Assembly: GCF_026210795.1 (NCBI RefSeq)
Contig: NC_089429.1
Location: forward strand, 868,001 to 932,000
Direction of reading: 5' to 3'
Origin: Rhizophagus irregularis
Lineage: Eukaryota
DNA: 64,000 nt
Position 1 is the first letter of the stretch. Each line of letters begins with the position of its first letter. The translations under genes and the position numbers were made by a program. Below are positions 2,134-64,000 of the stretch, in pieces. The notes under the pieces are model-generated. The model did not search any database. It was given only the letters and a program-made list of their open reading frames with translations, and was not told where the DNA came from.

Positions 2134-4737
2134 TTTATTTATTTATTTTATGTGAAGCCGGACAGACTATTAAACAGGACATATACCACACGTGAGTTAT
2201 CCTACTTCTAGCTATCATCTATCACCAGGGCGGACCCAAACTTCTTTAAAAATGTTGGAACCAGCCTGATCCTCCTCCACTACCGAAAGAAGAACAGGAA
2301 CCACAATTAAAAAGTGAACTAATTAACCCGTATTTTTCTTTCAACCATCAAGGTCACCACCTGTAAATACTGTCATAGGTGGAATGATTCACACTGTTTG
2401 TAATTGTTAATATCTATTTTAATACGAACCAAAAAAATTCAAAAAATGAATTACAAAATATAGAAACTAAACTATTTCAAAATACGAAATTTAAAAATTA
2501 GGTCTATATTAGCGGGTAAGAAGTCTTCTTCTTTAGTATCCCTACAATCGAAAGTACAAATTTTTTTTGTTAAAGGTGTAAGATCTCCATAATAATTATA
2601 GTGATTATGTCTGGCGCGATGCTTTTTTGGGCGACATTCTATTATTTTCGTGTCATCGGAGGTATCACTGAGATCATCTTTTACGTATTGAATATCATTT
2701 GGGCGAATAATAGCGCAGTACGGTTTTAAAGGGTAGTGTTCATCCCTGTATTGTTGTCCAAAATCTGTTATCAAATTGTTGAGATGTCTTGAAGCGACTG
2801 TTCGTTTGTCGTTGCTTTTCTTCGTAGATGCTCCATACGCAAAATTGCGAATACTGGCCATACGGTCATCAAAATTATCATTCATACGAGTAAAAAACTT
2901 TATAGCATTAATACGTCTAAGGTAATGTTTGGCGGAGGTATTATGATCCTTAATGTCTTTAATGACATTTAACCTTTCATTAAGACGATCACGAACTCTG
3001 ATCTCACTGATGCGATCTTCATCTAAACCTAGCATATATGCGTCTCTCAAGGATAGCTGAATTGTAGAGTCTTGTAATAAAAGTACGGCATCTATGTATT
3101 CTGATGCACCTTTACCATAATGTTCGTCAATAAGATTTGCGATATACCAATCCCTATAAGAGTTTTCTGATGTATCATCCCTGCCATTGTTGGCTGAAGA
3201 GTCATCCTCTTCATCTGAATTCTGAATCTTGATGACACTGCGTGATGCAGGAGTAATGTGAGGAGGAAGAATCCTATCTTCAGAAAGATGTAAAAGAGCG
3301 CAGTTCCGATCGTATGGAAAACGGAATAAGGGAACGGTTGGGAGATGAAGGATCCGTGTATAAATCTTTTGATACAGATGAAAAAGGAACTTCCTTTGAT
3401 TCGCAAGTTTAATCTTGTGGCAGAGTTTAAGGGCCATCCTAGATTTAGGTTTATTACCATTGAAAATACGTTGACAAGATCGGTCAAAATGAGCTTTTTG
3501 CCGTGCAGCAGTACGTAAATTAGAACTTAAAATGCAAGAAAAGTTCTCATAAATCTTGGTATACATAGGACCAGTAGCCTTGTTAGGGGGTAAAATTGAG
3601 TCAAGGTTGTGTGCTTCATAACGCGTTGTATAAGAGATGCCCAATCGATTCGAAAAAATCTTTTGCCTTGAGTTATTGTTATATTTCTCGTAAATAATGT
3701 TGGCGTGAAAACTTTTGTGATGAATAATATTGATCTCAGGTGCTGATGTTGCCTTATCCTCTGAGAGTGTGTTTTTTTCTTGAGTGATAGCCGAATGGTG
3801 TTGGATGCAAGCGTGTCGATTAAAATTTTTAACAAAAGGGCACGGTATATGGCATGGTGTTGTTTTTTGATGAGGAAACTTTTTTGTAGGTAGGTGATTA
3901 CAAGCTACATAGATACCAAAGTGAAATCTGTATCGTTTATAAGAGAAGTTGAAAAAAGTTTTGGTAATATTGTTGCTGCACGTGATTTTTCCTTCACGTA
4001 ATGCTATCAGATTGATTCTATCTAACAACTTGAGTCGTATCATGTTAAAAAATTTGTTCTGAATACGCCGAGGAATGACTCGTTGATGTAAAAAAAAGTG
4101 CGTGAGGCATTTCGATATTTGAAATCGATGATTAGGTAATTTGCTTGTGGAATAATACCGAATTGGGGTTGATAACATATGATGATCGTTTATGTATATT
4201 TTAAGGTGAATTTCATTGGTGTCTGGTATTTGATCGACAACCTCAAAAAAGAAACTTTTTGAACGCCTACATTCATAGATCTTATTATAACCTGCTTTGG
4301 ACGCAGCAGTCACATGAAATTTTTTGAAAGAGACCAAAAAAGAGAAGGTCGAAAGTATTGGTGAGGGTAAAGGAGCTTTGACTATGATAGTCGGAAGTGC
4401 GTTATCCTGTGGTTTAATATTCATCCTTAAAACTTTATCTTTAGAAAGTCCGCCTTCAGGAATGTTTCTTCTGTTATCGAAGTGTACATCCAACTGCGGA
4501 TAAGGTTCCAAAGGTTCATATGAGGCCAAGGAAAAGTTGGTATTTTTGTTGTTTGAAGATGACATAGTCCCTTAATATTGGGATAAGATAAGAATAAAAC
4601 CTTGTATGAGAACCAAGACGCCCAACAGGGCCTTTTTCCCCTTAAAGTTTTCGTGAAAAACTATAGAAAAATAACCAAGCGCAAAATACTGCGGAAAACT
4701 AACAAAATAAAAAAAAAGGGGAAAGAGTTTTTTTTTT
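2134..4737 (-). mobile_element. Full-length retroposed, RT-less protein-coding element, copy A
   Basis: 16-bp direct repeat TAACCAATTACAGTAT at 2118-2133 and 4738-4753. Minus-strand 3' end ...CTTCACATAAAATAAATAAAAATA; 5' end A-run+CTCTTTCCCCTTTT. Termini and ORF are homologous to 42788-45443. Confidence 0.85.
2472..4565 (-). CDS. 697-aa basic protein of unknown function encoded by element copy A
   Basis: Intronless ORF, more GC-rich than its flanks. Paralogous to 43344-45272 (38/54 identities in the KFHVT...SxPI block). Candidate Zn ligands CNH...C...RHACIxHH. Confidence 0.85.
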   Translation of the reverse strand: MSSSNNKNTNFSLASYEPLEPYPQLDVHFDNRRNIPEGGLSKDKVLRMNIKPQDNALPTIIVKAPLPSPILSTFSFLVSFKKFHVTAASKAGYNKIYECRRSKSFFFEVVDQIPDTNEIHLKIYINDHHMLSTPIRYYSTSKLPNHRFQISKCLTHFFLHQRVIPRRIQNKFFNMIRLKLLDRINLIALREGKITCSNNITKTFFNFSYKRYRFHFGIYVACNHLPTKKFPHQKTTPCHIPCPFVKNFNRHACIQHHSAITQEKNTLSEDKATSAPEINIIHHKSFHANIIYEKYNNNSRQKIFSNRLGISYTTRYEAHNLDSILPPNKATGPMYTKIYENFSCILSSNLRTAARQKAHFDRSCQRIFNGNKPKSRMALKLCHKIKLANQRKFLFHLYQKIYTRILHLPTVPLFRFPYDRNCALLHLSEDRILPPHITPASRSVIKIQNSDEEDDSSANNGRDDTSENSYRDWYIANLIDEHYGKGASEYIDAVLLLQDSTIQLSLRDAYMLGLDEDRISEIRVRDRLNERLNVIKDIKDHNTSAKHYLRRINAIKFFTRMNDNFDDRMASIRNFAYGASTKKSNDKRTVASRHLNNLITDFGQQYRDEHYPLKPYCAIIRPNDIQYVKDDLSDTSDDTKIIECRPKKHRARHNHYNYYGDLTPLTKKICTFDCRDTKEEDFLPANIDLIFKFRILK

Positions 4738-5343: not shown

Positions 5344-5366
5344 GTGAAATATGTCTTCGTCAATTT

Positions 5367-5578
5367 AGGACCCCGAAATATACATAAAAGGGTCAGGTCA
5401 GAGTTTGCGTATAATGAGTCAAAAAATCATGTAGATCATTCCTTTTATGGATAATTCCAGCCAAAATAATATTTCCTAATTTAGATAATGGCTGAAATTA
5501 TCGTAATTCCGGCCCTGAAAGAATGCGTATTTTGGACCACTTCTGGACCTGACCTCTACATATATATTTCGGGGTCCT
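5367..5578. mobile_element. 212-bp MITE sharing termini with the P-like transposon at 49988-54640
   Basis: TIR AGGACCCCGAAATATA at both ends. Perfect 8-bp TSD GTCAATTT (5359-5366, 5579-5586). Confidence 0.9.
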
Positions 5579-12270: not shown

Positions 12271-12373
12271 TTACTTAAAAAAACACTATATAAATGCTGT
12301 AATTTCACCTTGATAATTTTTACATAATTTCACTTTGAAATTAAATTTAATATTTAAAAATAATTTATTAAAT

Positions 12374-15329: not shown

Positions 15330-16340
15330 AGTTACACTGAAATATTCATGAAAATATCATACGATTTTGTGAAATCACAAAGATAGAATATATCAGTAAG
15401 TATTGAAAACATATTTAACATAATAATCAATTTATCTTAATAATAAGTAATTATTTTAAGATAAAATTGATTTAATTAGGCGAAATTTAAAAATATTCTT
15501 TAGTCTTAGAATACGCTGATAGTAGTGGTACGTTAAATGCTTACTTATTTAAGCAACCATTTTAATGTTTCGAACTGGAATGATAGATCCCACTTAGCAT
15601 TGCAATTGGCCAGCTCTGTAGAATTTTTGCAGATAATGATATTATTCATTGTGACCTGGTAATACTATATATTTTTTATATATTTTATTCATTCTAATAT
15701 CATTTATTTTAAAAAAAAATACAGCATAATAATTGAAGCATGGAAATAATATACATATACTTATATATACATCAGAAAAATATTAAATTAGCAGATTTTT
15801 GTTTATCAAAATAAAATTGTCGAAGCATCAAGTGACATATCAAAAGCACTTGGTGTATTACCCTATATCGATATGGACCCAAAAGTTTCGATGACAAAGA
15901 AAATTATAAATTAAATAAAAAATCTGATGTATACAGCATTGAAGTTTTATTTTGGCAAATTTCAAGTGGATGCAGACCTTTTTGTTGAAATTAATTATGG
16001 TCCAAGTTTAATGTTATTTATATTAAATGGTAAAAGAGAAAAAATTGTTGATGGAACTCCTGTTAAATATGGTAAAATATATACAGGTAACATTAATAAC
16101 CTTATTAATATTTTTTTATGAGCATTATTATTGATATTAATTTTATTTACTAATTGATTAGCATGTTGGAATTATGAACCGAATGAACGTCTAAATATGC
16201 AAGAAGTTGTTGTGACACTTAAAGCAATCATTTCTTCTGAAATTACCATTTATAATAACTTAATGAAGACAAAAAAAAATTCTTTTTCATCAGAAAATTA
16301 TGAAACAAATTTAGAATCAAGAAAGGATCTTTGGATATAA
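15330..16340 (+). pseudogene. Degraded TKL-like kinase pseudogene
   Basis: Frameshifted remnants of [58 protein letters not shown], with intron positions like the kinase at 7628-10972. Confidence 0.8.
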
Positions 16341-20011: not shown

Positions 20012-20689
20012 TATTTTGAATTTAATAAAGAGTCAAAGATAAAGAATTTAAGATAAAAAATTTAGGAGAATATATATGTATTTGTATAAAATGATAGTGT
20101 AAATAATTGTAATTATCAGTCAGTTAGTGCCAAATTTGACCACAGTGATTCTTTCATATGAAATGATCTTATGTTTCAATTATAGTGTAGAACACTAGTT
20201 TTATAATTATTGTTATTCAGTATAGTTAAAATGACTTCATTAATAATCATTATATAACCATGATTAGTAATCTTAATTACAAATACACTAACCTGTTTTT
20301 TTCATGTATATCATGTATAACAAAAAAAATACATTCATTTCCCTGTAAAGAAACTAAATTTACCATTCTTTCAAAATAAAATAAAGTTTAATCACTTTTT
20401 CCATTATTTTATTGTTTGGTTAATTATGATTCTTAAAATCTCTCATATAATTATAAGAGAATACTTTTTTTTATTCCGCTTTTTGTACCATAAAAATAAA
20501 AATTTGTTTTAAATAATATTCATTTTTAAATTCGATGTGTTTTTTATTTGATCAATTTGATTATTAAAAATATTTATAAGTAATCAAATAACTTTTTAAA
20601 TAATTTTGAAAGTTAAGCTTTAAATAGTAATTCATCAAATACAGTTAGTGGGAATTTATAACGCAATTAAAAAAAAAGTAATTTTTGTT

Positions 20690-21390: not shown

Positions 21391-23214
21391 TAGGAAAGAA
21401 CTGAAGTTGGTGGTGTGAAGCAATAACCTATTGCTGTGTTTTTGTCAGATCAATGTACTATTTCTTAAAGATCTCATTTTAATATATGTTTCCAAACTTT
21501 ATTTCTTTCATTTATAAATCATCAATTAGTGAAATCAAAGATTTTTCTGTTAGGAAGCGAGAAGTTTTAAATACTTTTAAGCGATTTGATGATTTGATCA
21601 GATTTACTAAGAAATCCTGACGGTAATATTTGATAATACACAATACACTTTAGCAACAAGTTATCACGTGAAAAGTAAAATAACCAAATGGCAAGATGGC
21701 GTAGTAATTTATTAATCATCAAAGTTATCAAACAATTTAACTACAAATAATATTTGAAATGAAGAAATGCTATGTCATCCTTAGTATGTAAAGGTTCTTT
21801 AAAGATAATCGTTATATCTTTAAATGTAAAATATTAATTTACGTTAAATTATTTCACACAATACTTTTCTAAACAAAGTCATGACAAACCATTTTTCATA
21901 GAAAACTATTTGTAATGTATGTATGTAAATAGAAAATACTGATATTAAAATATGACTTCATGTGTATAATGACGTAAGAATATCTTATTATAATCAATCA
22001 ATCATTACTAATCCCGATTTAAGTAAAATACAGTACATAAAATAGCCACTGTTTCTCTTTATTCTCTTTAACCCCTCTTTCCTTTCTTACTACTTCTCGC
22101 TCTTCTTTTTCTTTATTTTTTTTTGCTAAGTATGGTAAAGGTAAGGTACAACCAACTCCACATCACATTTTAGAACCGGCCAACTCCACGTTGAAAAATT
22201 ATAAAAACCGTTAAAGTTAAAAACCGTACTTAAACAAATTTTTAATGAAAATTGAGTAGAGAAACCTGTGTTTATTGCTCGGTCGTCTTTCCCACATTAC
22301 GTATATATACGTACGTATTATATGTATGTATGTACATAGTACGTATTGTGTATATATGTAAACCAAATAATTAGATGGGGGGATGAGAAAGCTTATTTTG
22401 ATTTTACAAAAATAATTTCTTTCTTGTTCTGATGCGCTTGTGCATAATTTTTTTTTTGATTTTACGTTAATTACTTTCTTATCTTTCTTGTTATTTTGAT
22501 GCACTTGCGCATAAGTAGTAGTACCTGGGGCCAGAACATAACTAAAAAACACAGTTTATGTATAGAAATCGATCAAGTTGTGTTGTTATATATCTTTAAT
22601 TCTATATGTCCGAACTTCTCTGCTCAATTTTTGTTCTTTTAACAACCCAAATACTATTTTTTTTTTTAACCCTATTAATTATAAACTGGTTGTAAAGTTT
22701 TAAAGTAAGTGGTTTTTTTTTTACCTGAACGAAGCTTGTCACCTCTACGTGGTGTTCAGGAGAAACAGCTGTAGGTTAATTTACCATACATCTGGCCAAG
22801 AGCAAGCATCATTTTATTTTACATGTTTTTAGATTTTTTTGCGCCATTTTGTATTGAATATCACGTAAAACGTTTATTGATTGTAAAAATCAAAAAAGAA
22901 ATATTCAAAGTTTGAGGAAACTCAATGATACTAAAAGAAGGAAATTATTAATTGTTTAATAAAGATTTAACGAAAAGCTTTAAATTCTCTTAAAAATTGT
23001 AATTTAGAAGTGAAATACGCAAAATAATTGAATTATACTTTGGAAATGGAAGAACCTTTAATTAATTATGTTCAGGTTTACGCTCAGTATTTTATATACA
23101 TTTATTGTTAAAAAAAAATAATGAAAAAAAGTATTAATTAAATTAAATAAAAAAAAATTCGTAACGTGAAAATCGAATAAATGGAAAAAAATATATTTTG
23201 AAACGAAAAAAGAA

Positions 23215-28957: not shown

Positions 28958-30260
28958 CAGTACCCGGGTCTATACTTGCCGCCCAAATAAATGGGATGGG
29001 ACTTGGGAGTCCCAACCCATCCCATCCCAAATCCCATTTAATATATAATAATATTTATTTATTTTATGTGAAGCTGGAGGATAATATTTATCCTATAATT
29101 GCCAAAAATTAAAAATCACGTGACTCCGGCGAATAAATAGCAAAAACCTTTTTTTTAACATAAAATTTTTTCAATATAATACTCTTAAAAGATTTATTTT
29201 TTAATTCTTTATAATTTTTTTGTTTTGTAAAGTATTATCCTATTAAGCATTCATATTATTAATATTATTATCGTATAATCTGTAATTAATCAAAAGATAT
29301 CATATCTTATAGTGTATATGCTAATAATTTAAATTTAAATTAGAAAACTAAGTCCTTTTTTATTGAATGCCAAGCCATTTTAATTAAATACTAAGCATTT
29401 TTTTGTTAAATACAAAGCCATTTTGTTAAATCCTAAGCTTTCATTTTTGTTAAACACTAAGCCACTTTTGTTAAATGCTAACATTTTTTGTTAAATACGA
29501 AGCCTTTTTTGTTAAACACTAAGCCTCTTTTGTTAAATGCTAACATTTTATGTTAAATATTAAGTCATTTTTATTAAATTTTAAGCCTTTTTTTATTAAG
29601 TACCAAGCCACTTTCTGTTAAATATTTAATTCTTAATTAATCAAAGTAGAATAAATCAGCTAAAAATAAAAATTCTGATTAATATAATATCAGTTACTAA
29701 TCATTACAAATCAGTATTTTTCTGATTTATAGTTATTGCAATTTATAATTGATAGCAGATATTGATGTTAATTAAAGTTCTAATTTATAGCTAATTCTAA
29801 ATTAATCCTAATATGATTTTTTACTTCAATTAAAAGCTTTTTTGTTTAATAAAATTTGGCTTAATACTGATAATTTGGCTTAGTTTCAAATACTTGCATC
29901 ATCATTAAATAATGGAATTGACTTATTTGATGATAATGACCTTGAAGTTAATTTTGAAATATTAATGTGATCGAAGAAATTGTAGATTTAGAAGGAATAA
30001 ATAATCAAGAACTAGAAATTACAAATTTTATTGATTTATCAATAAGTTTATTAAATAATAATAATAAGGATGAAAAAGAAGATGAAGTAAGTATAATGAA
30101 CCATGGTCCATGAAGACTTAAATTTTGATGTTGATGAATTAATAAATAAGTTTGATGAATCAGTTTAATTAGTTTTCTATATTTATTATTTATTATATAG
30201 ATAAATTTTTTATCATTTTAATAGATAGGTTAAAATAAAGTTTAAAATATTACATTTTGT
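28958..30260 (+). mobile_element. Decayed, internally deleted DNA-transposon remnant (hAT-like architecture)
   Basis: Quasi-palindromic TGGGAT/ATCCCA cluster at 28989-29039. Array of TTTTGTTAAATACTAAGCC-like units at 29350-29625. Acidic coding remnant ending NFDVDELINKFDESV*. Termini not resolved. Confidence 0.35.
29059..29080 (-). mobile_element. 22-bp 5'-truncated retroposed insertion related to the 3' tail of elements A/B
   Basis: TTATTTTATGTGAAGCTGGAGG matches TTATTTTATGTGAAGCCGGACA of copy A. Flanked by 11-bp direct repeat ATAATATTTAT (29048-29058, 29081-29091). Confidence 0.7.
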
Positions 30261-31803: not shown

Positions 31804-31990
31804 CATATTCTAACCTCGATATACCGATATTCGATATACCGATATATTATTAAAAACTTGATATACCGATAAAATTTTATTTTCCCACTATATGTGAGGA
31901 CATATAATATCGGTATAACTTTGATATAACGATATTTCCTAAAAATTCCATATATGTCCCGACATATCGTTATACAAAGGTTTGACTGTA
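31804..31990. mobile_element. Tc1/mariner-pogo-like MITE
   Basis: Right end GGTTTGACTG|TA, degenerate left end, repeated CGATATA(A/C)CGAT motifs. Inverted homologue at 34299-34448. Confidence 0.6.
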
Positions 31991-32310
31991 ACCTCATTTA
32001 ATGAACTGAATGTTATTTGCTGTTCTAATTCTTCTAAATCATCATGTTTGTTTCATCGGCAATGGAAATTTGTTCGTCAGCCTCCTCAATAGGCGATTTG
32101 TCCAAGCATTGTGATTTACTATCAGAGAATACAGTTGCGGAGGAACCTTTTGTGGTTTTAATCTGAGTTCCTCTGTTTGACCTTGCAATCTCCGAATATT
32201 GCGAATTTGATGATGGTGATGTGTTTTCGAACGTGACCTTGAAAAATTAGAACCAACAGCCAACGTTCTGTCAATTCTCATTAAAAAATTACCTCGTCCC
32301 GATCTCTTCT

Positions 32311-32869
32311 TGTCATAAGTTTCACTCCACTGCTTATATTTTTAACGGTTCCTCCATTTACCACAGTCCCGTATTTAGATTCGGTTAGTGGATGTGAATT
32401 TGTTTTTGCGTGCGCTTCTTTTCGCTTTTGTACGATCTGGTTTAAGACCTTAGCGTGGAAATTCTGGAAATTAATAATAATTCTTAACTAATATTTCCTA
32501 TCCCACTAGGACATCAGCCAACCTAGCAGGCCAACTGTGCCTTAGTGAATCCAATGCTGGATCAGCTAGCAGCCTTTGGCATCAGATAACCTAACAAGTT
32601 ACCTATGCGCCAGCATCAGTTTCGTGGCTCAGCTAACAGCCTTGAATGACCGACAACCTAGCAGGCCCCCGCTCACATCACGACTTAAAGAACTTTTACT
32701 TACTAGTATAAATCCGTCGAGAAGCGATTGCGCTTTTATACTCCTCTCTCCTTGCGATGGGTTTTGAGACTTTTTGTGTATCTATCTATCTTTGTGTCCA
32801 CACTCGTTTAAGAAATCAATAATACCCAAGTCTCAGGATTTCGTTTAAAATATTCATGATCTCTTGACA
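32311..32869. mobile_element. Possible solo or truncated LTR
   Basis: GC-richer 559-bp block bounded by TGTCA...TGACA with an internal TATAAA. No TSD found. Confidence 0.3.
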
Positions 32870-34298
32870 TGACTAATACACGTTTTTTTGTAGAGTATAA
32901 CTTTTACGCTTTAAACAAAATGAAATAACGGTATATATGAAGCCGATTGGGATCATCCACCGCTATATGCTTATGGTAACACAGGTGACATATTATGCAG
33001 GTGACATATAGAGATCAGACCACTCAAAAAAAAGTCGTTGAGATAAATATAAACAACGCGAACGAGGCAGTCAACGTGAACGGTGACGGTTAGACATCAG
33101 AGGGTGGTGTGGTAAGATTATTCAGCCGATTATTGCACAAATCCAGTAACATGCCAATCGGGGAATAATTTTTTCTGATGTCACAAAGTCCAAAATGTGA
33201 AACGTATGTATTATCTAATAACACATTCTAACCTGATACCAATGGTAAAAGTTTTCGATGAAAATTTCTGAAGTGTGCGAAATTTTATTGACTTTTCAGA
33301 TATATAACTAATCAGAGTAGCGAGAGAAATATATAATGCTATCAAAGAGGGAGGGAGTACGCGGATCCCAGGTAATTTAATGCGAGTCCCAGCATCAAAT
33401 TATTCTCACATTTACGGAAAATATCTATAGCTAATTTGTTTCTATTACTAATATTTCTAACTACAAGATTTTCCTTTTTCTACATTAGATTTTCGAAATA
33501 AATTTCCCACATACAGTATCTACAGAATTTGCGATAACAAAAAAAAACCTTCTTCTCGGTAAAACGATCTTAACAAAAAAAAGAAAAGAAAAATTATTTG
33601 TTTATTTATTTTTTTATTTATTCAAAATTTTTGGAAATCCGGAATGTAAAGAAGGACTATATTATTTTCTAACCAGGAAGAAATATATTATTATATGCAA
33701 AATATTAAACCATAATTAGTTTATACCATTTGCGTCACCTTTTAATTTTAAGAGCGCGTGGGGCATGTTGAACTTTATTAAATAGGCCAGCCATGCAAAC
33801 CGGTAAAGACGGTATCGGTGGTTGCTTATTGAAATTTGATTACTTTAGGAAAGAAAAAAAGTGATAAAAACCTTTTCCTTCATTAATAATCCGATAAAAA
33901 AAAAATACGTAAAATAAACTTAAAGTGAGGCACTCTTCTAAAAAAAGTATGATTTATGAAATTATGCATGAAATAAAAACGTGACAAACTATGAAACAGT
34001 CACACAGCGTTTGATTATATTTAATATTTAGACCAAAAAGAGAAACTATAGTAACGCCATATTAGATTTTCACGCGGCTTATGCTCCATATATACGATAA
34101 AAAATGGTTGTACAACAGCTTTTCTTGGAATTTAAACAAAAATTGTAAAGTGAAAGTTAATCCGGTTAATGATATCCGGAGGATCATCCGGATGAAATAA
34201 AGTTTCTTTTCCGAAGCTTCGATTTATCAAATTTTAATTTCATGAAGTTGACTAACGAGTAACGACTACACGATTGACGGTCGTACATAGTTTATAGT

Positions 34299-34448
34299 TA
34301 CATTCAAACTCCGATATAACGATATGTATCCATATAAAATATCGTCACATCAATATTTATACGCTCTCTCATATAGTGAGAAAGTAAAATTTTATCGTTA
34401 TATCGAGGTTTTAATAGTCGAATATCGTTATATTTAAGTCTGACTGTA
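34299..34448. mobile_element. Tc1/mariner-pogo-like MITE
   Basis: TA|CATTCAAACT.CGATATAACGAT ... ATCGTTATAT..AGTCTGACTG|TA. Internal sequence is the reverse-complement homologue of 31804-31990. Confidence 0.65.
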
Positions 34449-34963
34449 TACTTTTTATTTTCTTCTTTATTGAGACAAATGATATCATTTATAATTTATC
34501 GATTATCATTGAAGTTTTCTTTTGAGAATTGTAAGAATAAATAGAAACATGAAATAAAAATTATGCATGGTGCTAAATCAAATATAATTATTATGGTATG
34601 TATCGAAAAATAAACTTTTAACCAATAAATTTTAAAGATTCATATGATCGTTTAAAAATTCGGATAGGATTAACCCGGATAAAACCTAATTTAATGAATG
34701 TATCCGGATTAACGATCCGGATTTGCATCCGAATTGCCTAAATAGATTTTTGTCACAGTGACGTGATTTTAGGACACGATTACTAAGGGGGGGGGCATCC
34801 GGAATTTACTTAAATTAACTAAAAAAAGGAACGATTTACAAATTTTTTTATTGCAGGTCATATTGTTGCCTTTTTATGGAATATTTAATAAATTGTACTC
34901 GAAAATTGATAAATTTGCATCCATTGTGAAATGAAAGCAAACTCTTTTTTTTCTTCAACCAAC

Positions 34964-36583
34964 ATGACATGTTCAAAAATATTTTCAGGAGATTTACCAG
35001 AATTAACAAATGAAATTATACAACATTTTAGAAAAGATTTTTCAACATTACATTCGTGTATTTTAGTTAATAGATTTTGGTGTCGTTTAGCGATTCCATT
35101 ATTATGGGAAAGTCCTTTTTCAATTCCTACTCGAAATTGTCATTATATTGAAGTTTACTTACGCCATTTAAATGATGAAGGTAAAGCAAAATTTAATGAA
35201 TATGGAATCAATAATGATTTATTAAGTTCAAATACATTATTCAACTATCCCAGTTTTATCAAACATTTAAATATAAGTAGCATTTATTTTTCTATTAAAG
35301 AGTGGGTTGGTACTTTGGTGATTAAGAATAATGAAAAACTAGAAAAATTAGTTTATAGATCATTATTTGAAGTGTTCCTTGAAAATGAAGGAATTTTAAA
35401 TTCTTTTGAAATTGTGATGTTTATGAATATTGTAAATTTTAATGATACTATGGAATTAATTTTACAAAATCCAAATTTTATATATAATATTAGAAATTTA
35501 AAATTTCATACCTATAATATTTCATTTCAAAACATCGTTCCTTTTTTAAAATTTTTATGTTCTAATTGCAATTTAATCACATCACTTCATTTTTATTTTT
35601 ATTTTGCTTTATCTAATATTAATGATTTTTCATTAATTGAAAAATATTTATCACAGATAATTATGTCACAACATAATCTCAAAATAATTTCATTTGGATC
35701 TAGTAATGCTATTTTATATCACCCATTTTTATCATTAAAAAATTCTAATTGTTCAAATACTTTAAATACGATTATATTTGATAATATTGATTTTAAAAAT
35801 ATAATTACTATTTTAAAAAAAGTATTCGATCATCTGAATGTTTTAGATTCTATTCATATCCTTTATTGTGATTCTTTGAATTCCGATTTTGTTCAACAAA
35901 TCATTAAGGTTATTAAACCTTTTAAATTGAGATCTTTATTTATGAAGGAAATATTATACATTGAATCATTACATTTGTTATTACAAAAATGTGGAGATTA
36001 TTTAGAAAATTTTGAATTTGGATCTATGCGTGAAGAATATGAAGAATCAAGACAACAATTTCTTAAATTAATTATGAAATATTGTACAAAAATTAGACGC
36101 TTTACTTCAACTATGCCTGATGATAATAATATTTATCAATTAATTGAAAATACTAAACAAACCATTAATTATCTTACTATTGATAATTATTATGACGAAT
36201 TAGGTTCAATTGTATTACAAAACTTGGGTCAAGTTCTTCCTTTTAAATTAGAATATTTACGATTATCACTTTCATTTAATTCAAATGATTTTGAAATATT
36301 TTTAAAAAATTCTCAAAATACTTTTATTAAGAAATTATTAATTAGTAATATGATGCAAAATGAAAGTGTAAGTATTTTATTTTATATAAAAAAATATATT
36401 ATGAGAAGGGAAAGGGTTAAATATTTGGCTTTTTCGGAATTTTTTCCTGATATTGATACGGATGAAGAATTGTTTTTTTTAGAACATGAAGTAAATGAAT
36501 TTAAATTACATAATATTATAGTTCAAAAATATTCTGATTTATATATTTCTGTATATAATATTATTTACAATTTTAATAAGTAA
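34964..36583 (+). CDS. F-box-like / LRR protein (~539 aa from MTCSKIFSGDLPEL; an in-frame upstream ATG lies at 34931)
   Basis: LPELTNEIIQHFRKDFSTLHSCILVNRFWCRLAIPLLWE. Paralogue of 59257-60900, where the equivalent upstream ATG is out of frame. Confidence 0.87.
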   Translation: MTCSKIFSGDLPELTNEIIQHFRKDFSTLHSCILVNRFWCRLAIPLLWESPFSIPTRNCHYIEVYLRHLNDEGKAKFNEYGINNDLLSSNTLFNYPSFIKHLNISSIYFSIKEWVGTLVIKNNEKLEKLVYRSLFEVFLENEGILNSFEIVMFMNIVNFNDTMELILQNPNFIYNIRNLKFHTYNISFQNIVPFLKFLCSNCNLITSLHFYFYFALSNINDFSLIEKYLSQIIMSQHNLKIISFGSSNAILYHPFLSLKNSNCSNTLNTIIFDNIDFKNIITILKKVFDHLNVLDSIHILYCDSLNSDFVQQIIKVIKPFKLRSLFMKEILYIESLHLLLQKCGDYLENFEFGSMREEYEESRQQFLKLIMKYCTKIRRFTSTMPDDNNIYQLIENTKQTINYLTIDNYYDELGSIVLQNLGQVLPFKLEYLRLSLSFNSNDFEIFLKNSQNTFIKKLLISNMMQNESVSILFYIKKYIMRRERVKYLAFSEFFPDIDTDEELFFLEHEVNEFKLHNIIVQKYSDLYISVYNIIYNFNK

Positions 36584-41132: not shown

Positions 41133-41839
41133 ACTATTTCTTATAAATTTTATTGATAGGAATATCAGTCAATTATTGAATTATTTAAACACTAAAGATT
41201 ATAGTTTTAGGTAATTTCTTAGTTTGTAATTTAAATAATTCTTTTTTTTTTTGTATATGTATTAACTTATTCATTTATTAAATAAAAATACTTACAAATT
41301 TATTATATATTATATACTACAAATATTATGTGAACGTCGTATGATTTGTAAAATATATTAATTTAAGTATTAATATGCTATTTATTTAATAAGTATTTTA
41401 ATTACAAATAATATACAGTAAATTACTCATTCATTTCTAAAACATTTTCGCATCTTTTATATAATTCACTTTCTGTTTGTGCATTATAATTCAAACATCT
41501 AAAACATGTAAATAAAGAAGCCCTTTTAATTATAATCTTATAAATCCATCAACTTCATTAGTATATATCGAAGTATTATTTGAACAATTCTCAATCATTT
41601 CCGAAGACGAAGATATTGTTGCGTCTGAAGTTATAAAAATAGATTGCTAGTCCACATCAGAGAACATATTCTTAGTTTATTATTCCTCCATTTCAAGATT
41701 ATTTAGTCAAAACAAAAGGAGACCTAAAGAAAAGAGATATCGGGTGAAAGAAATATTCTTCAACCTTACAAAGTTTCAGACTGCCAGCAAAGGGAATTTA
41801 TGATGAATATATTTTTCCATAAAGTAGTAATAAATTTTG

Positions 41840-42420
41840 AACCCTAAAAGAAAACCCAATAAAGAGAAGACCTAGACAGAGAAGATAAACCTAAAAAAAA
41901 GATGAAAAAAATATAAGATGAAACATTACCCACACTCCCAACCAACATACCTAAAGGAGGACGTAAAGAAAAAGGCCTAAAAGAAGACCTAATGAAGAGA
42001 AGACCTAAATATAGAGAAGATAGACCTAAAAAAAAAGATGACGAAAAAAAATAAAATGAAACACCACACTCCCAAACCCACACTCCCACACTCCCAACAC
42101 TCCCACACTCCCAACACTCCCAACACTCCCAACACTCCCAACCCGCACTCCCACACTCCACTACCAACACTCCCAACCCGCACTCCCAGACAGAGAGAGG
42201 ATAGACCTAAAAAAAAAAGATGACGAAAAAAAAATAAAACACCACACTCCCAAACCCACACTCCCACACTCCCACACTCCCAACCCGCCCACACTCCCAC
42301 ACCCCACCCACACTCCCAACCTACATACCCAAAGGAGGACGTAAAGAAAAAGGCCTGAAAGAAAACCTAATGAAGAGAAGTCCTAGACAGAGAGAAGATA
42401 GACCCGACGAATAAAAAAGA
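41840..42420 (-). repeat. Compound repeat: duplicated AGAGAAGATAGACCTAAAAAAAAGATG blocks interleaved with (CTCCCACA/CTCCCAACA)n microsatellite
   Basis: Directly visible. The minus strand is G-tract rich and carries GTATGT donor-like and TTTTAG acceptor-like signals. Confidence 0.8.
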
Positions 42421-42787
42421 GGTGGTATTGAGGGTATATAAATACTTTTTTCAAATACATAGTGACTAATAATGAGATAATATCTTTCCGTTTCTTCCGA
42501 CTGTTTTTTACAATCACAAAACTTGCTTTTCTATAAAATATTGGAAGAATGAAAAAAAAAAGTGTCAAAATGACGTTAGAGTTGTCAAAATGACTAATAA
42601 TTGAATCATAGAAAAAATCATATGTTCATGATCAATAAAAATAGACTTTTCGTACTACTCATATTGGTGGCACATCAAGTATTTTCCTATAGTATCTTTG
42701 TAATCTTGCGCAATACAATTGTTTAACAATAAGGGGCTGACTGAACTAGGAAAGAATAGCAGATAATCGCATTATTAATTATTATTT

Positions 42788-45443
42788 ATTTATTTTATGT
42801 GAAGACGGACAGACTATTAACAGGACATAAACGTAACTGTGCTATCCTACTTCTAGCTATCATCCCCCCGAAGATGGACCCGAACTTCTTTAAATCCAAT
42901 GAGCCAGAATGATCCCCTCCCCTACCAGAAAGAAACCAATGAACCGAAAGAAAGAAAATGATAAAGGACACTGACTAAATATTAAGAAGTTGTGGCAATC
43001 TACACATTATAAATAGCAAAATTCAATTAATTGACGAGCATTAATCCGTATTTTTCTTTCAACCACAAGGGTTGCCACCTGTAAATACTGTAAGAGGTGG
43101 AATGGTTTACACTATTTTAAGTTGTGAAAAATCTAACGTAAAAAAAAGGACTAAAATGCTAAAAAGCATGTACAAAAAGAAACTAATATATGTATAAGTG
43201 GTTATGTTAAAATGACTAACGAGTACTTAAGTAGTACGAGTAGAGGAACTGTTTTCTAAATCCTTTGAAGCGGATAATATACAAACTTTTTTATCTATAT
43301 GATAGCCATAGTGAGTATCTAAATTGCCATTATCTCTGGCCTTTCATTTAAGCGGTCGATCGTCCATGATAGCACAAGGCTGATATGCCAGACTATAATC
43401 TTTCTTATAGTATTCCATGTAAAAGATATCTTCCTCATTGCTAACCCGAGAACGTAAGTCTGCTAAGATTTCAGTATCTTCCTGTTTTTTCCGATCAAAT
43501 TCTTTTAGTTTTTGTAAGTGACATTTTTCGCGTTTTTTGCGTTCGCTGTTATTAATCGGTCCAGTTACAATTGGTAATTCAGGAGGTACTGACGATGAAA
43601 TCTCTAATAATTTCATTTCATATTCATGTTTGTGGTTTGTGACTTGCATTACAAGACTGCAAAGATTACTCCGATATTCGCCTTGATCAGGGGTGGTTTC
43701 CCATTGTATTCCAGCGTCGATTTTTCCTTGTAGATATTTGGTCCTTGATACGTGTTCATCATAAATTACTTTCATGAAGGCTAACCAGCCATCACTGCCG
43801 ACTGCAAGCGGTTGTAAATTCTTTTTCCAGATTTTACCACGAGAAGGTTGATTAAATCGGCCTCCTTCGTAAATATCATATGGAGGAATTAAAGGAATGT
43901 AATGTTCAGGTACATTCTCCCAAATGTTTGTATTGACTGGGGATATAGAATTAGCCGTCGGTGTAGGTGCGACAGAGCTATCGTTGCAAATCGGTTCCAC
44001 TATAGCAGGTACAGATACTGTCCTTGGTTTATGAAAAGGGATTGGAAAGGTATAATAACCTTTTGTCGGTATGACAAATCTTTTCTTGTATCGAAGATGT
44101 TTAATGGGAGTGATAAAACTTTGATTTTCTTGGAATAATAATTTGTGATGTCGTGCAACGTGGAGTTTATCATCCGGTAGCGCATTGTCATCCAACTTGG
44201 CGTTATGAAAAGTGTGTCTAATCAGACCATTAAAACGTGCTTCTTGTCTTTTCTTTACCTTTGGACAAGAACTGGGAGTGAATTGAAAATTCCCATAAGT
44301 TTTGCCATAAATAAAATCAAGTCCTTTTGTAGCAACGACGTTAGTATTATATGCGTGGTATGATGTGGTGAAAGAGATTCCCAATCGGGTCGAAAAATTC
44401 TGATGAAATTTCTTTTTAGTCCATCTGTTGTAGAGGCGAGATGCGTGGAAATCTTTGAATGTTTTGCAACGACTAAAGTCAGGAATTTTGTTATCCTTCG
44501 AAATATAGTATAGAACTAGATTCTTATGGTGGATGATACAGGCATGACGATCATGTGACATTGTAAAAGGGACCGGGATAGAGCAAGTCGCAGTAGTATT
44601 GGGAAGTAAACCTACTGTGTGAGTGTGATTGCATGGGAGGTAAATTCCAAAATAAAATCTATATTTTTTATACGAAAAATTAAAAAAAGTTTTAGTCATA
44701 TGATTATTTTTGTCTTTTTTTTGGGCACATGATCTTATAAAATCCAAACGCTCCAATAGTTTTTTACGAATAAGTGTAAAAAATTTGTCTTGCAATTTTC
44801 GAGGAATAACTTTTTGTGTTGAAAAAAAGTGCGTGAGCTGTTTCGATATTTGAAATTTGAAATTAGGGAGTCGGCTCGTGGATTCATGATTAATCGGGTT
44901 AGAGGACATATGATAATCATTTGTGTAAATCTTCAATTGAAGTTGATTGGTGTCTGGTAAATGATCAACCAGCTCAAAAAAGAAACTTTTTGAGCGCCTA
45001 AAATTGTAAATCTTGTTATAACCGGCTCTATGGTGTGGAGTCACGTGGAACTTTTCGTATTTTGTAGAAAAAATATAAGTTTTGTTAGGCGAAGAGAAAG
45101 GCCTAATATCATCAAAGTCGTTATGAAATGAAGGTGTATCCGATAAAATGTTATCAATAGGAGGTACTGTTTGTAAAGTATCATGGTTGAAAATGAAATC
45201 ATTAGGACCAGCAGGTGTATAGTCGTATCCGGGTGCAAGAGCAAAATCGTCGGCTCTTGGAAAATAAGACATAACCAACCCTTAAATATGGGTATAATGA
45301 GAACAGTAAAACCTCGTCTTATGCCCGAGGTGCCCTGTAGGGCCTCTTCCCTTTAGTTGTTTCAAATAGAAACTAAAAAAAAGAAACTTGCACAAAATTA
45401 CTGCGGAAAATTACCGAAATGAAGGAAAAGGGGAAAGAGTTTT
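42788..45443 (-). mobile_element. Full-length retroposed, RT-less protein-coding element, copy B
   Basis: 21-bp direct repeat TCGCATTATTAATTATTATTT at 42767-42787 and 45444-45464. 3' end ...CTTCACATAAAATAAATAAAT; 5' end AAAACTCTTTCCCCTTTT. Homologous to 2134-4737. Confidence 0.87.
43344..45272 (-). CDS. ~642-aa basic protein of unknown function (copy B); stop at 43344-43346 is probably premature, with the frame continuing to 43227
   Basis: ATG at 45272 follows the conserved CCC-N8-GGG hairpin, as in copy A. Read-through gives RPLK*KARDNGNLDTHYGYHIDKKVC, which aligns with RPKKHRARHNHYNYYGDLTPLTKKIC of copy A. Confidence 0.82.
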   Translation of the reverse strand: MSYFPRADDFALAPGYDYTPAGPNDFIFNHDTLQTVPPIDNILSDTPSFHNDFDDIRPFSSPNKTYIFSTKYEKFHVTPHHRAGYNKIYNFRRSKSFFFELVDHLPDTNQLQLKIYTNDYHMSSNPINHESTSRLPNFKFQISKQLTHFFSTQKVIPRKLQDKFFTLIRKKLLERLDFIRSCAQKKDKNNHMTKTFFNFSYKKYRFYFGIYLPCNHTHTVGLLPNTTATCSIPVPFTMSHDRHACIIHHKNLVLYYISKDNKIPDFSRCKTFKDFHASRLYNRWTKKKFHQNFSTRLGISFTTSYHAYNTNVVATKGLDFIYGKTYGNFQFTPSSCPKVKKRQEARFNGLIRHTFHNAKLDDNALPDDKLHVARHHKLLFQENQSFITPIKHLRYKKRFVIPTKGYYTFPIPFHKPRTVSVPAIVEPICNDSSVAPTPTANSISPVNTNIWENVPEHYIPLIPPYDIYEGGRFNQPSRGKIWKKNLQPLAVGSDGWLAFMKVIYDEHVSRTKYLQGKIDAGIQWETTPDQGEYRSNLCSLVMQVTNHKHEYEMKLLEISSSVPPELPIVTGPINNSERKKREKCHLQKLKEFDRKKQEDTEILADLRSRVSNEEDIFYMEYYKKDYSLAYQPCAIMDDRPLK

Positions 45444-45691
45444 TCGCATTATTAATTATTATTTTTATTTATCTGTAAGGCGTCAACCACTTTATACAAA
45501 TCACGTGATATAATCTTATATTTACTAAGGAGTGGATAAATTATAATCCCGTCTCGCGACTCTCGCGTCCCATTCAAAATTACGAATCATAATCCCAAAA
45601 AATTCAAAATCTCACACTCATTATCCCAAAACTTATTATCTTTTTTTTTTAAAAAAAAAATTTTACATTATTATTTTTCTTTTAGATGTAA

Positions 45692-58818: not shown

Positions 58819-59256
58819 ATTGTATATAGTATAGGGAATATTTATACAAAGTTTCAAGTTTCGCCTACGCAGCCACGCGTATTCACCTTCGCCCATCAAT
58901 TTTTTTCCGATGACTTCATATCATCACACAATGATGCAATTTAATTTATTTTGTTATAATAATAATATGTTTAAATATGATTTTATAATGATTTTCATAA
59001 TATTTTTACTAATATTTTACCAAGTTATTTAAGAAATTCGTCATATGTTATATGTGATCGACAAATGATCTGCAAAGTATGTCTGAGAATAGATAACAAG
59101 AGATCGGCGTGCCGGAATTACTTGTGTTTATTATCAAAAAAAGGAACGATTCACATATTATTTTTATTTCTATTTGTAGTACAACATACGTTACGAAAAA
59201 TTAATAAATTTTGTTCCCAATTGTGAAATGAAAGCCGCTTCTCTTTCTTCGCCAAC

Positions 59257-60900
59257 ATGGCATGCTCAAAAATATTTACAGGATATTTGCCCGAATTAAC
59301 AAATGAAATTATACAAAATTTTAGAAAAGATTTTTCAACATTACATTCGTGTATTTTAGTTAATAGATTTTGGTGTCGTTTAGCGATTCCATTATTATGG
59401 GAAGATCCATTTTCAATTCCTTCCCAAAATTATCGTTGTATTGAAATTTATTTACATTTTTTAAATGAAGATAGCAAAGCAAAATTTAATGAATATGAAA
59501 ATATTAAAATTTTAATACCTACAAATACATTATTTAATTATCCTAGTTTTACTAAATATTTAAGTTTAAATAGTATTTGTTCTTCTGTTGAAAAATGGGT
59601 TGCTACTTTAGTGAATGATAATCGTGAGAACCTAGAGAGATTAGTTTATAGGTCATTATTTGAAGTATTACTTGAAAATGAAGGAAACTTACACTCTTTT
59701 GAATTTGTAATGTCTAGGAATGGTAGTAGTATTTGTACACATTTTAATAATACTATGGAATTGATTTTACAACATCCAAATTTTATTTGCAATATTAAAA
59801 ATTTGGCATTACATATTTTTCATGATATTTTCCTTCAAAATACCATAAATATCATTCCCTTTTTAAAATTTTTATATTCTAATTGTAATTCAATCTCATC
59901 AATTATTTTTCATTTTCGTATATATAATGTTGATAATTTTTCATTAATTGAAAAATGTTTATCACAATTAATTATTTCTCAACATAATCTCAAAATAATT
60001 TCATTTATTGCTTGTAGTACTATTTTATATAAACCATTTTTATCATTAAAAAATTCTAATTGTTCAGATACTTTAAATACAATTATATTTGATAGTATTG
60101 ACTTTAGAAATGTAATTACAGTTTTACAAGAAGTATTTGATCAATTGAATGTTTTAGAATCAATTCATATTCTTTATTGTTATTCTTTAAATTCTGATTT
60201 TGTTCAACAAATTATTAAGGTTAATAAACCTTTTAAATTGAAATCTTTATTTATAGATGAAATATTACACATTGAATCATTACAACTTTTATTACAAAAA
60301 TGTGGTGATTATTTAGAAAATTTTGAATATGGATATATGATCAAAAAGTATGAAGAATCAAGACGACAATTACTTAAATTAGTTATGAAATATTGTACAA
60401 AAATTATATATTTTACTTCAGATAAACCTGATGATATTAATATTTATTTATTAATTGAAAATATTGGACAAACTATCAATTATCTTACTATTCTAATGGA
60501 TGCTAGCAATAAATATAATTCAATTGTATTACAAAATTTAGGACAAGTTCTTCCTTCTAAATTAGAATATTTATATTTGTCACTTTCATTTAGTAATGAT
60601 TTTGAAACATTTTTAAAAAATTCTCAAAATACTTTTATTAAGAAATTATTAATTAGAAATATGTTAAAAGATGATAATAAAATTGTTTTATTTTATATTA
60701 AGGAATATATTATGAGGAAGAAAAGGGTTAAATATTTGGCTTTTTCAGAATTTGTTCCTGGTTACTCTTACACGGAAAAAGAATTGTTTTTCTTAAAAGA
60801 TGAGGTAAATGAATTTAAATTATATAATATTATAGTACAAAAGCATCGAGATTTATATATTTCTCAACATGATATTGTTAATATTAATATAGAATATTAA
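59257..60900 (+). CDS. F-box-like / LRR protein, 547 aa
   Basis: LPELTNEIIQNFRKDFSTLHSCILVNRFWCRLAIPLLWEDP; colinear paralogue of 34964-36583. Confidence 0.88.
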   Translation: MACSKIFTGYLPELTNEIIQNFRKDFSTLHSCILVNRFWCRLAIPLLWEDPFSIPSQNYRCIEIYLHFLNEDSKAKFNEYENIKILIPTNTLFNYPSFTKYLSLNSICSSVEKWVATLVNDNRENLERLVYRSLFEVLLENEGNLHSFEFVMSRNGSSICTHFNNTMELILQHPNFICNIKNLALHIFHDIFLQNTINIIPFLKFLYSNCNSISSIIFHFRIYNVDNFSLIEKCLSQLIISQHNLKIISFIACSTILYKPFLSLKNSNCSDTLNTIIFDSIDFRNVITVLQEVFDQLNVLESIHILYCYSLNSDFVQQIIKVNKPFKLKSLFIDEILHIESLQLLLQKCGDYLENFEYGYMIKKYEESRRQLLKLVMKYCTKIIYFTSDKPDDINIYLLIENIGQTINYLTILMDASNKYNSIVLQNLGQVLPSKLEYLYLSLSFSNDFETFLKNSQNTFIKKLLIRNMLKDDNKIVLFYIKEYIMRKKRVKYLAFSEFVPGYSYTEKELFFLKDEVNEFKLYNIIVQKHRDLYISQHDIVNINIEY

Positions 60901-62470: not shown

Positions 62471-62599
62471 GAGAAAGTGAACATTCACTATGGAAACTTT
62501 TTGCGCTGAGTTTAACTGTGCTGCTCAAAAAGAATGTTAACTTGACAGATCATGAAATAGTATGTTGATCATTTTTTATTAAAATGTGAAAAAAAAAAA

Positions 62600-64000
62600 A
62601 AAATTTGACGTTTTTGTGATTGAAAAATCAAAAAAAAATTAATTTTTTTTAATCAAAACGTCAGACTTGACGTTTTTGTGATTGAAAAATCAAAAATAAT
62701 TGATTTTTTTAATCAACTTGACGTTTCTGTGATTAAAAAATCAAAAAAAATGATTTTTTTAATCAAAAACGTCAGACTTGACGTTTTTGTGATTAAAAAA
62801 TAAAAAAAATGATTTTTTTAATCAAAAATGTCAGACTTGACGTTTTTGTGATTAAAAAATAAAAAAAAATGATTTTTTTAATCAAAAACGTCAGACTTGA
62901 CGTTTTTGTGATTAAAAAATCAAAAAAAAAATGATTTTTTTAATCAAAAACGTCAGACTTGACGTTTTTGTGATTAAAAAATCAAAAAAAATGATTTTTT
63001 TAATCAAAAACGTCAGACTTGACGCTTTTGTGATTAAAAAATCAAAAAAAATGATTTTTTTAATCAAAAACGTCAGACTTGACGTTTTTGTGATTAAAAA
63101 ATCAAAAAAAATGATTTTTTTAATCAAAAACGTCAGACTTGACGTTTTTGTGATTAAAAAATCATTTTTTTTGATTTTTATTAGCTAAGAACGTCAGACT
63201 TGACGTTTTTGTTATTAAAAATCAAGAAAATTTGATTTTTATTAGCTAAGAACGTCAGACTTGACGTTTTTGTTATTAAAAATCAAGGAAATTTGATTTT
63301 TATTAGCTAAGAATGTCAGACTTGACGTTTTTGTGATTAAAAAATCATTTTTTTTGATTTTTATTAGCTAAGAACGTCAGACTTGACGTTTTTGTTATTA
63401 AAAATCAAGAAAATTTGATTTTTATTAGCTAAGAACGTCAGACTTGACGTTTTTGTTATTAAAAAATCATTTTTTTTGATTTTTATTAGCTAAGAACGTC
63501 AGACTTGACGTTTTTGTTATTAAAAATCAAGAAAATTTGATTTTTATTAGCTAAGAACGTCAGACTTGACGTTTTTGTTATTAAAAATCAAGGAAAAATG
63601 ATTTTTATTAGCTAAAAACGTCAGACTTGACGTTTTTGTTATTAAAAATCAAGGAAAAATGATTTTTATTAGCTAAAAACGTCAGACTTGACGTTTTTGT
63701 TATTAAAAATCAAGGAAATTTGATTTTTATTAGCTAAGAATGTCAGACTTGACGTTTTTGTGATTAAAAAATCATTTTTTTTGATTTTTATTAGCTAAGA
63801 ACGTCAGACTTGACGTTTTTGTTATTAAAAATCAAGAAAATTTGATTTTTATTAGCTAAGAACGTCAGACTTGACGTTTTTGTTATTAAAAAATCATTTT
63901 TTTTGATTTTTATTAGCTAAGAACGTCAGACTTGACGTTTTTGTTATTAAAAATCAAGAAAATTTGATTTTTATTAGCTAAGAACGTCAGACTTGACGTT
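62600..64000. repeat. 58-60-bp palindromic satellite/minisatellite, running off the window end
   Basis: More than 20 units with invariant core AACGTCAGACTTGACGTT; two subtypes switching near 63165. Confidence 0.95.

Follow-up and report, generated by a model that had tools for sequence, protein, structure and literature searches.

Copy B is full length and belongs to an old, protein-coding family of the Glomeraceae that has no reverse transcriptase (RT), and it is probably a non-autonomous, non-LTR retroposon that uses the enzyme of a co-resident LINE. The support consists of a fixed 5′ end, 3′ modules, a (TAAA)n tail, target-site duplications (TSDs) of variable length, unrelated flanks, many loci and a single open reading frame (ORF) whose N-terminal half is under purifying selection. 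Copies A and B have in common the 5′ end, two 3′ modules and the tail, and both are found on the minus strand of the window, the 64-kb stretch of Rhizophagus irregularis DNA analysed here. The element measures 2.6–2.7 kb, most of which is taken up by an ORF of 681–697 codons (Table 1). The first-pass annotation had placed a full-length copy at 42767–45464, a span that equals element B plus both copies of its direct repeat. The tail occurs, after the same terminal motif, at a third place in the window, a short piece that is likely an extreme 5′-truncated insertion, although a repeat of 11 bp is in itself weak evidence.

Table 1. Copies of the element in the window and their parts
Feature	Position	Strand	Remarks
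Element copy B, full length, 2656 bp	42788..45443	-	21-bp direct repeat at both ends; ends common to copy A
Element copy A, 2604 bp, intact ORF 4565-2472	2134..4737	-	16-bp TSD at 2118 and 4738
TSD of B, element 3′ end	42767..42787	.	Same letters as 45444-45464
TSD of B, element 5′ end	45444..45464	.	X10 contigs diverge from element here
5′ UTR of B: short A-run, pyrimidine-rich start, conserved blocks	45273..45443	-	73% to A over 168 nt
DUF8211-family ORF of B, 681 codons to sibling-used stop, TGA at codon 643	43227..45272	-	
Conserved basic N-terminal region (P0001 residues ~69-423)	44013..45077	-	Candidate metal site C217, C233, C248, H251
Fast-evolving C-terminal region: predicted long helices, basic RPxKR...KK end	43227..44012	-	
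Central 3′ UTR module, two predicted hairpins	43044..43125	-	Sequence match to A, read depth
Terminal 3′ module and (TAAA)n tail of B	42788..42934	-	81% identical to A across 161 nt
22-bp piece with a match to the element 3′ end only	29059..29080	-	nhmmer E 0.014; 11-bp direct repeats at 29048, 29081

Both copies are nearly open, as the annotation had stated: base composition predicts about 42–45 stops per frame, where A has none and B has one, a TGA at 43346–43344, 39 codons before the stop of its sibling. This sibling, P0068 (681 aa), lacks the break, and its last residues are those of B read through. BLASTP aligns B residues 61–413 with A residues 67–419 (154/360 identities, 43%; E = 1e-82), a match that takes in all of the N-terminal motifs listed earlier, and every other stretch scores 17 bits or less. 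The C-terminal halves do barely align (12% identity over 162 aligned residues). Profiles of the A and B groups match each other directly in this region with a probability of 6%, while both match a third group, at 98% and 97%, so that on profile comparison the two halves are homologous by way of a third subfamily. A C-terminal swap between subfamilies was rejected, since both groups match the third. Two C-terminal patches had been proposed as shared. RP.K..AR...KK.C is present in both copies, but in B only when the TGA is read through. Y.L..PCAI is out of register, the family alignment and profile pairing PCAIMDDRPLK of B with DTKIIECRPKK of A and not with YCAI, and this likeness is probably due to chance.

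What kept the frame open? Over residues 66–255 (190 codons), dN/dS between A and B is 0.285 (bootstrap 0.16–0.44), at a dS of 1.30 that is near saturation; over residues 66–420 it is 0.33 (0.16–0.48), and for residues 275–360 alone it is 0.54 with an interval (0.16–1.07) that includes 1. A value of 1.0 for the C-terminal half was discarded as meaningless at 12% identity. Thus, a ratio near 1, which would have spoken against the proposed protein-level selection, was not found in the N-terminal half, and at the level of codons that half has been under purifying selection, averaged over the lineages joining A and B. The further claim, that selection acts during retrotransposition, is an extrapolation from the anatomy of the element. 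Selection likely acted on source elements rather than on the inserted copies A and B. B itself carries a nonsense codon, and is likely a fairly young copy that gained it since insertion. The 34 best-supported ORF differences between B and its close relatives, a biased sample (34 of 640 rows) with 28 in the C-terminal part, comprise 10 synonymous and 24 non-synonymous changes, which is near the neutral expectation of about 7.5 to 26.5. As proposed, A and B belong to long-separated subfamilies: each falls in a supported clade of its own, together with close siblings.

The untranslated regions have also been retained. Apart from the 5′ UTR and terminal module (Table 1), the central 3′ module is 76% identical between A and B over 150 nt, and an indel of 75 nt lies between it and the terminal module while both still match, in line with the earlier observation that spacers differ and modules persist. 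Folding of the 5′ UTR gives a weak signal (z −1.8 and −1.6, with 13/200 and 15/200 shuffles equally good), and the other modules fold no better than shuffles. Covariation in the two-sequence alignments of A and B is too little to support a structure. A 6-bp pseudoknot between the first-hairpin loop and an A-rich stretch of the central module was seen by eye only and is invariant. Penelope-like elements and retrozymes carry hammerhead ribozymes in terminal repeats. Rfam searches gave no family in the 5′ UTR or the central 3′ module and no ribozyme family within A or B or at either end, from which a divergent ribozyme could escape, and neither copy has long terminal repeats. The 5′ UTR may carry an internal promoter, and the terminal module with the tail would likely be the recognition signal for a helper RT.

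The family is large and dispersed. A profile search returned 585 clusters at 50% identity, of which the best 150 are all 697 aa or shorter. Precomputed Pfam annotation assigns DUF8211 (PF26638) to 62 of 63 relatives, one relative is identical to B over its aligned part, and all named relatives found are genomic gene models of Glomeraceae, covering at least four species in two genera (Rhizophagus and Glomus), with two groups only about 21% identical. At least 18 distinct locus tags come from one R. irregularis assembly; together with the unrelated flanks of A and B and the varied sequence past the 5′ boundary, these mark a dispersed multi-copy family. Literature searches found no description of the family, nor the name DUF8211; repeat collections such as Repbase, Dfam and the curated AMF repeat library may already list it as an unknown repeat or SINE.

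Could these be host genes, repeatedly retrocopied from processed mRNA, with selection acting on a host function and not on mobility? Processed pseudogenes and retrogenes have a single-exon ORF, UTRs and TSDs, as this element does, and a fixed 5′ end resembling a transcription start would be expected of them as well. In public annotation, too, the relatives appear as hypothetical or DUF8211 host genes, and predicted introns or truncated forms are frequent among the models. However, the tail is (TAAA)n and not pure poly(A), and it follows an identical terminal motif in subfamilies separated by dS > 1; several subfamilies each occupy several loci in one assembly, and the repeat tail and terminal motif are conserved across many multi-copy subfamilies, unlike in processed pseudogenes. 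The non-coding modules were moreover kept while the C-terminal half of the protein diverged to 12% identity. We therefore regard a retrocopied host gene as unlikely.

The protein itself offers little resemblance to anything known. Residues 66–420 have a pI of 10.1, and C217, C233, C248 and H251, kept in 90–97% of 31 relatives, are a candidate metal site. H79, E103 and D122 are invariant in the family, and no more than three acidic positions reach 80% conservation. The N-terminal structure model is alpha/beta (mean pLDDT 80.9, pTM 0.55) and had no match in fold libraries at E 0.001 (best Z 3.8, with matches mainly over the first 150 residues). The full-length model (pLDDT 72.9, pTM 0.37) gave nothing at E 0.001 with Foldseek on PDB and viral libraries, only generic helical hairpins with Z up to 9. 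A PDB sequence search reached E 0.084 at best, an ESM Atlas search returned no usable match, and a scan of A and B with a local Pfam copy that did not contain the DUF8211 model gave no matches. The absence of a clear fold match in predicted models need not mean a new fold.

This isolation would fit an independent RNA agent, such as a satellite RNA or virus segment, or a gene captured from one, written into the genome by LINE enzymes and now spreading as a retroposon, since the protein resembles no ORF1 type and no solved fold. The contigs that carry several of the intact relatives are close to the element in length (2006–2870 nt), as a free RNA would be, but also collapsed repeats or transcripts. 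On the other hand, predicted viral structures gave no match with E up to 0.001 (best E 0.025, TM 0.09), scans of viral, metagenome and prokaryote collections and of phages found no DNA locus related to the element, neither end carries a ribozyme family, and the named relatives are all genomic. Such an origin is thus improbable, on a par with retrocopying of a host gene.

The junctions point to insertion by a LINE-type mechanism. TSDs are 16 bp for A, 21 bp for B and 11 bp for the candidate piece at 29059–29080. In a chance check with 130-nt windows, 2650 nt apart and taken away from A and B, 5000 of 5000 random window pairs had a longest exact match of 14 nt or less, versus 16 and 21 here. The AT-rich tail overlaps an AT-rich target end at all three junctions. 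In B, a few bases at the inner boundary of the 3′ TSD are shared with the TAAA tail. A DNA-based mobile element, with DUF8211 as an unfamiliar transposase or recombinase, would also have direct repeats at its ends, and one conserved ORF with invariant H79, E103 and D122 and a Cys/His cluster would suit it; but the element ends without inverted repeats and with a simple-repeat 3′ tail, the TSDs vary in length, one copy is a candidate 5′ truncation, few acidic positions are conserved, and Pfam and fold searches gave no DDE, HUH or tyrosine-recombinase match, all of which makes this explanation very unlikely. Segmental duplication of one locus, suggested by the shared orientation of A and B within 64 kb, is refuted, because similarity does not extend past the element ends, each copy has its own TSD, and a comparison of the flanks gave only five low-complexity matches of 30–40 nt each, leaving the insertions independent, as first proposed.

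Retroposition by a LINE enzyme thus remains the preferred reading, and that enzyme is not encoded by the element. Neither A nor B has an RT or endonuclease by Pfam, PDB sequence or fold, as an autonomous LINE would; with no RT, the element cannot move alone. No RT family occurs among the 63 relatives, no RT or nuclease family among 135 new proteins from the best 150 profile matches, and none of 517 candidates of 1130–3225 aa scored, the last being weak evidence. Searches by Pfam, PDB sequence and fold found no ORF1-type domain in the DUF8211-family protein, and none of the gene models examined has an ORF1 followed by an RT. The only RT-bearing models are P0115 and P0128 (one of 25 matches and its cluster mate), in which an RT fragment lies upstream of the domain. 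They were rejected as evidence for an ORF1–ORF2 arrangement, the order being wrong, and more likely represent a LINE into which an element has inserted. No helper LINE with the 3′ end of the element turned up, scans of the viral, metagenome and prokaryote collections giving no related locus. R. irregularis is reported to have several LINE clades, any of which could act as helper (PMC11075540).

Non-autonomous LINEs that retain only ORF1 are a known kind: PMC5786205 and PMC5753468 describe HAL1 (from L1), HeT-A (from Jockey) and Ag-Sponge (from CR1), whose proteins likely multimerise with those of the partner and enhance transposition. By these accounts they resemble the DUF8211 element in having one protein, no RT or endonuclease, and LINE-like ends, and the element shows the corresponding variable TSDs, simple-repeat tail, single enzyme-less ORF and dispersed copies. 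HAL1, HeT-A and Ag-Sponge, as described there, have known parent LINEs from whose ORF1p their proteins derive, whereas no parent was found for the DUF8211 element and its protein matches no known ORF1 domain; the element also differs in its fungal host, with at least four species in two genera. SINEs and ORF-less derivatives of RTE, Ingi, Vingi and R2 (PMC5786205) are likewise non-autonomous, with a conserved 3′ end and tail and with TSDs, but encode no protein, in contrast to the long selected ORF of this 2.6–2.7-kb element, at whose 5′ end, where a SINE would have a head derived from a small RNA, Rfam finds no family.

How would such an element spread? It would be transcribed from its own 5′ end, and its basic, probably metal-binding protein may coat its own RNA in cis, by analogy with LINE ORF1 proteins. 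A LINE enzyme would recognise the 3′ end of the element and nick AT-rich DNA, whose end could pair with the UAAA tail, and the RNA would then be copied (target-primed reverse transcription). Spread would be limited to source elements whose protein works, and this would account for frames that stay open in subfamilies with near-saturated synonymous sites. A bolder version is possible, if rather doubtful: that no living LINE has DUF8211 as its ORF1 and that the element forms an independent lineage of satellite retroposons, having a protein of undescribed fold and structured 3′ RNA modules of its own, which has exploited LINE enzymes from before the Glomus/Rhizophagus split onward, numbers hundreds of clusters and has swapped 5′ ends between subfamilies.

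If the LINE-dependent reading is true, many supposed orphan genes of root-symbiont fungi, a large family, are in fact mobile DNA, and both their gene counts and the lineage-specific novelty claimed for these fungi are affected. Protein-coding non-autonomous LINE-like elements, found described for mammals and insects, would extend to a fungus. About two-thirds of R. irregularis repeats were unclassified, and published curation retains retroelements by their enzyme domains (PMC11075540), so an enzyme-less coding element would likely be missed. Two parts of a retrotransposition particle become open to testing with this element, a protein region that has no clear counterpart among known structures and the conserved 3′ RNA modules.

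Contigs of 4 of 24 listed sequencing runs were compared with copy B and its flanks. In run X10, nine contigs follow the element as far as its 5′ boundary (45444) and continue into dissimilar sequence (agreement 0.56), and in X10, X11 and X16 between 4 and 10 contigs exit at each side of the central 3′ module, which is the deepest-covered part of the element in three of the four runs. Depth in X11 is 245 for a unique flank piece, 1,559–10,769 for the ORF bins and 23,226 for the central module bin, figures that indicate many related copies and give no copy number. The element is covered in one run whose RNA origin is a guess, and this coverage shows nothing on expression. No joint skipping element B, as from an empty site, was among 15 of the 45 joints. 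Three runs contain pieces of B or its left flank without any difference, and may thus carry copy B itself.

The two copies of the element in the window, A and B, share the same anatomy. Each begins with a short A-run and a pyrimidine-rich motif common to both, and ends with a shared terminal motif followed by a (TAAA)n tail. Each is bounded by its own direct repeat; in 5000 random window pairs, spaced as the real repeats are and with the A and B regions excluded, exact matches never exceeded 14 nt. The first-pass annotation had described B as a divergent full-length copy, and the repeat, the A-like ends and an ORF with one late stop bear this out. The UTR modules do persist at varying spacing: A and B are 73% identical in the 5' UTR, 76% in the central 3' module and 81% in the terminal module, with a 75-nt indel between the two 3' modules. 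A 22-bp piece made of the element 3' end only is likely an extreme 5'-truncated insertion, although weak on its own.

Positions of the two element copies and of other features in the window
Feature	Position	Strand	Remarks
Copy A	2134-4737	minus	bounded by 16-bp direct repeat, two copies
Sel1-repeat gene	7628-9850	minus	108-bp tandem units
68-nt inverted arms	10024-10091, 15900-15967
hAT transposase ORFs	12317-14629	plus	two consecutive ORFs
F-box-like ORF	18533-20032	minus
HDV-like ribozyme candidate	22724-22807	plus	immediately 3' of a T-run
22-bp element piece	29059-29080	minus	flanked by 11-bp direct repeats
60-nt inverted arms	31848-34416		arms 2449 nt apart
F-box-like ORF	34913-36583	plus
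CA-rich repeat	41800-42430		adjoins B on the left
Copy B	42788-45443	minus	bounded by 21-bp direct repeat, two copies
F-box-like ORF	59227-60900	plus
Satellite	62565-64000		60-61 bp units

What has selection acted on? The ORF of A is intact (697 codons). That of B starts at an ATG at 45272 and meets a TGA at codon 643, beyond which no further stop occurs until a TAA at codon 682; base composition predicts about 42-45 stops. Because siblings such as P0068 (681 aa), whose C-terminal residues are nearly the same as B's, read through that position, B carries a single late nonsense codon. Residues 61-413 of B are 43% identical to A, confirming the proposed conservation of the N-terminal half. By the Nei-Gojobori method, dN/dS between A and B is 0.285 for residues 66-255 (bootstrap 0.16-0.44; dS 1.30), not near 1, and 0.33 (0.16-0.48) for residues 66-420; residues 275-360 alone give no clear signal either way. 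The N-terminal half has thus been under selection across the history separating A from B, and here the suggested protein-level selection holds. Evidence at shallow depth points the other way: the 34 ORF differences listed between B and its close relatives, a biased sample (34 of 640 rows), comprise 10 synonymous and 24 non-synonymous changes, a near-neutral ratio, and 28 of them fall in the C-terminal part.

The C-terminal part was conserved less than the N-terminal part in all 31 comparisons with B. Between A and B it is only 12% identical, as divergent as had been reported, though the two C-terminal halves are homologous through a third group, whose profile is matched by both the A-group (98% probability) and the B-group (97%); these do not match each other directly. 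The PCAI patch said to be shared by A and B is out of register and probably due to chance.

The 63 relatives of the protein come mostly from R. irregularis (57; R. diaphanus contributes four), and one is identical to B across its aligned part, which places the host in R. irregularis or a very near relative. PF26638 (DUF8211) is carried by 62 of the 63 and a reverse transcriptase (RT) family by none. Proteins of 1130-3225 aa did not score against the family, which is weak evidence. With E up to 0.001, a profile search yielded 585 clusters (50% identity), of which the best 150 were all at most 697 aa, and the 135 new proteins among them carried no RT or nuclease family. Ten hand-picked divergent representatives included three from Glomus cerebriforme and two from R. 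clarus. Among the relatives, one assembly is represented by 18 different locus tags, several per subfamily, and in a tree of 32 rows A and B fall into different supported clades, each with close siblings, as expected of the separate subfamilies postulated for them. A distant second group (P0103-P0151, mostly 470-620 aa, several loci per assembly, without the DUF8211 label) matches by profile at 21% identity (probability 99.8%) and retains the Cys/His cluster. Some gene models (P0027, P0113) pair an N-terminus of the first group with a body of the second, which may reflect recombination or nesting.

Contigs from four sequencing runs were compared with B. In run X10, nine contigs diverge into dissimilar sequence exactly at B's 5' boundary; in X10, X11 and X16, 4-10 contigs depart at each edge of the central module; in three of the four runs this module has the deepest coverage within the element. 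The pattern is consistent with numerous full-length copies inserted at unrelated sites, the central module having been kept by many diverged subfamilies. The contig joints listed for B, 15 of 45, included no empty site.

The element has non-LTR insertion anatomy, occupies many loci and contains no enzyme gene. It probably spreads as a non-autonomous non-LTR retroposon that supplies a protein and uses a LINE enzyme in trans. Its RNA would be transcribed from its own 5' end and bound by the encoded protein; a LINE enzyme would recognise the 3' end, with priming at AT-rich nicks pairing with the UAAA tail, and only source elements with a working protein would spread. LINE families listed for R. 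irregularis in excerpts of PMC11075540 are CR1-Zenon, L1-Tx1, R1, R2-Hero, RTE and I. An RT fragment occurs in one of 25 matches, upstream of the family domain; this match and its cluster mate are the models P0115 and P0128, in which a LINE-type RT fragment lies directly upstream of the second-group ORF. A LINE would have the opposite order, so these models more likely represent an element nested in one, giving a lead to the helper.

A retrocopied host gene family is unlikely, as is an RNA agent or captured viral gene; a DNA transposon of unknown type is very improbable. Segmental duplication of one locus is hardly credible and was ruled out because the flanks of A and B share, beyond their distinct repeats, only five matches of 30-40 nt, in keeping with the independent insertions inferred earlier; that interpretation is largely correct. 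In excerpts, PMC5786205 and PMC5753468 describe HAL1, HeT-A and Ag-Sponge as encoding an ORF1-type protein only, and the present element, which shares four anatomical features with them and is a candidate for the same class, would work in a similar way. A literature search for 'DUF8211' returned no paper, and the search results listed held no published description of the family, although Repbase, Dfam, the curated AMF library or supplements may list it undescribed. It is most suitably classed as a Glomeraceae family of protein-coding non-autonomous retroposons, hidden among orphan genes.

The N-terminal region of the protein is basic (pI 10.1). Among 31 relatives, C217, C233, C248 and H251 are conserved in 90-97%, and only three acidic positions reach at least 80%. 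Charge and Cys/His cluster suggest a non-enzymatic, nucleic-acid-binding role. The predicted structures show long helices C-terminal to mixed alpha/beta domains. Searches of Pfam, PDB sequences and the ESM Atlas gave no clear match, nor did Foldseek or VIA-align, whose best Z for the N-terminal model was 3.8. That the protein had no LINE ancestor is a tentative, minority possibility.

The window, AT-rich fungal DNA, carries genes of the Sel1, F-box-like, kinase and hAT types. The repeat adjoining B is a different one, with short CA-rich tandem units; it is internally duplicated and has deep coverage in all four runs. The HDV-like candidate (Rfam HDV-F-prausnitzii, 35.1 bits against a gathering score of 44, E 0.0088) could be the head of another retroelement. 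The split hAT transposase has a weak zf-BED and a hAT dimerisation domain (E 6e-22), and the 68-nt arms may be the ends of its element. The 60-nt arms are 85% complementary, do not enclose any ORF of 100 aa, and possibly delimit a non-autonomous DNA element. The Sel1 units are mostly 93-97% alike, the two plus-strand F-box-like ORFs are paralogues (about 86% DNA likeness), and each satellite unit has a short near-palindromic core.
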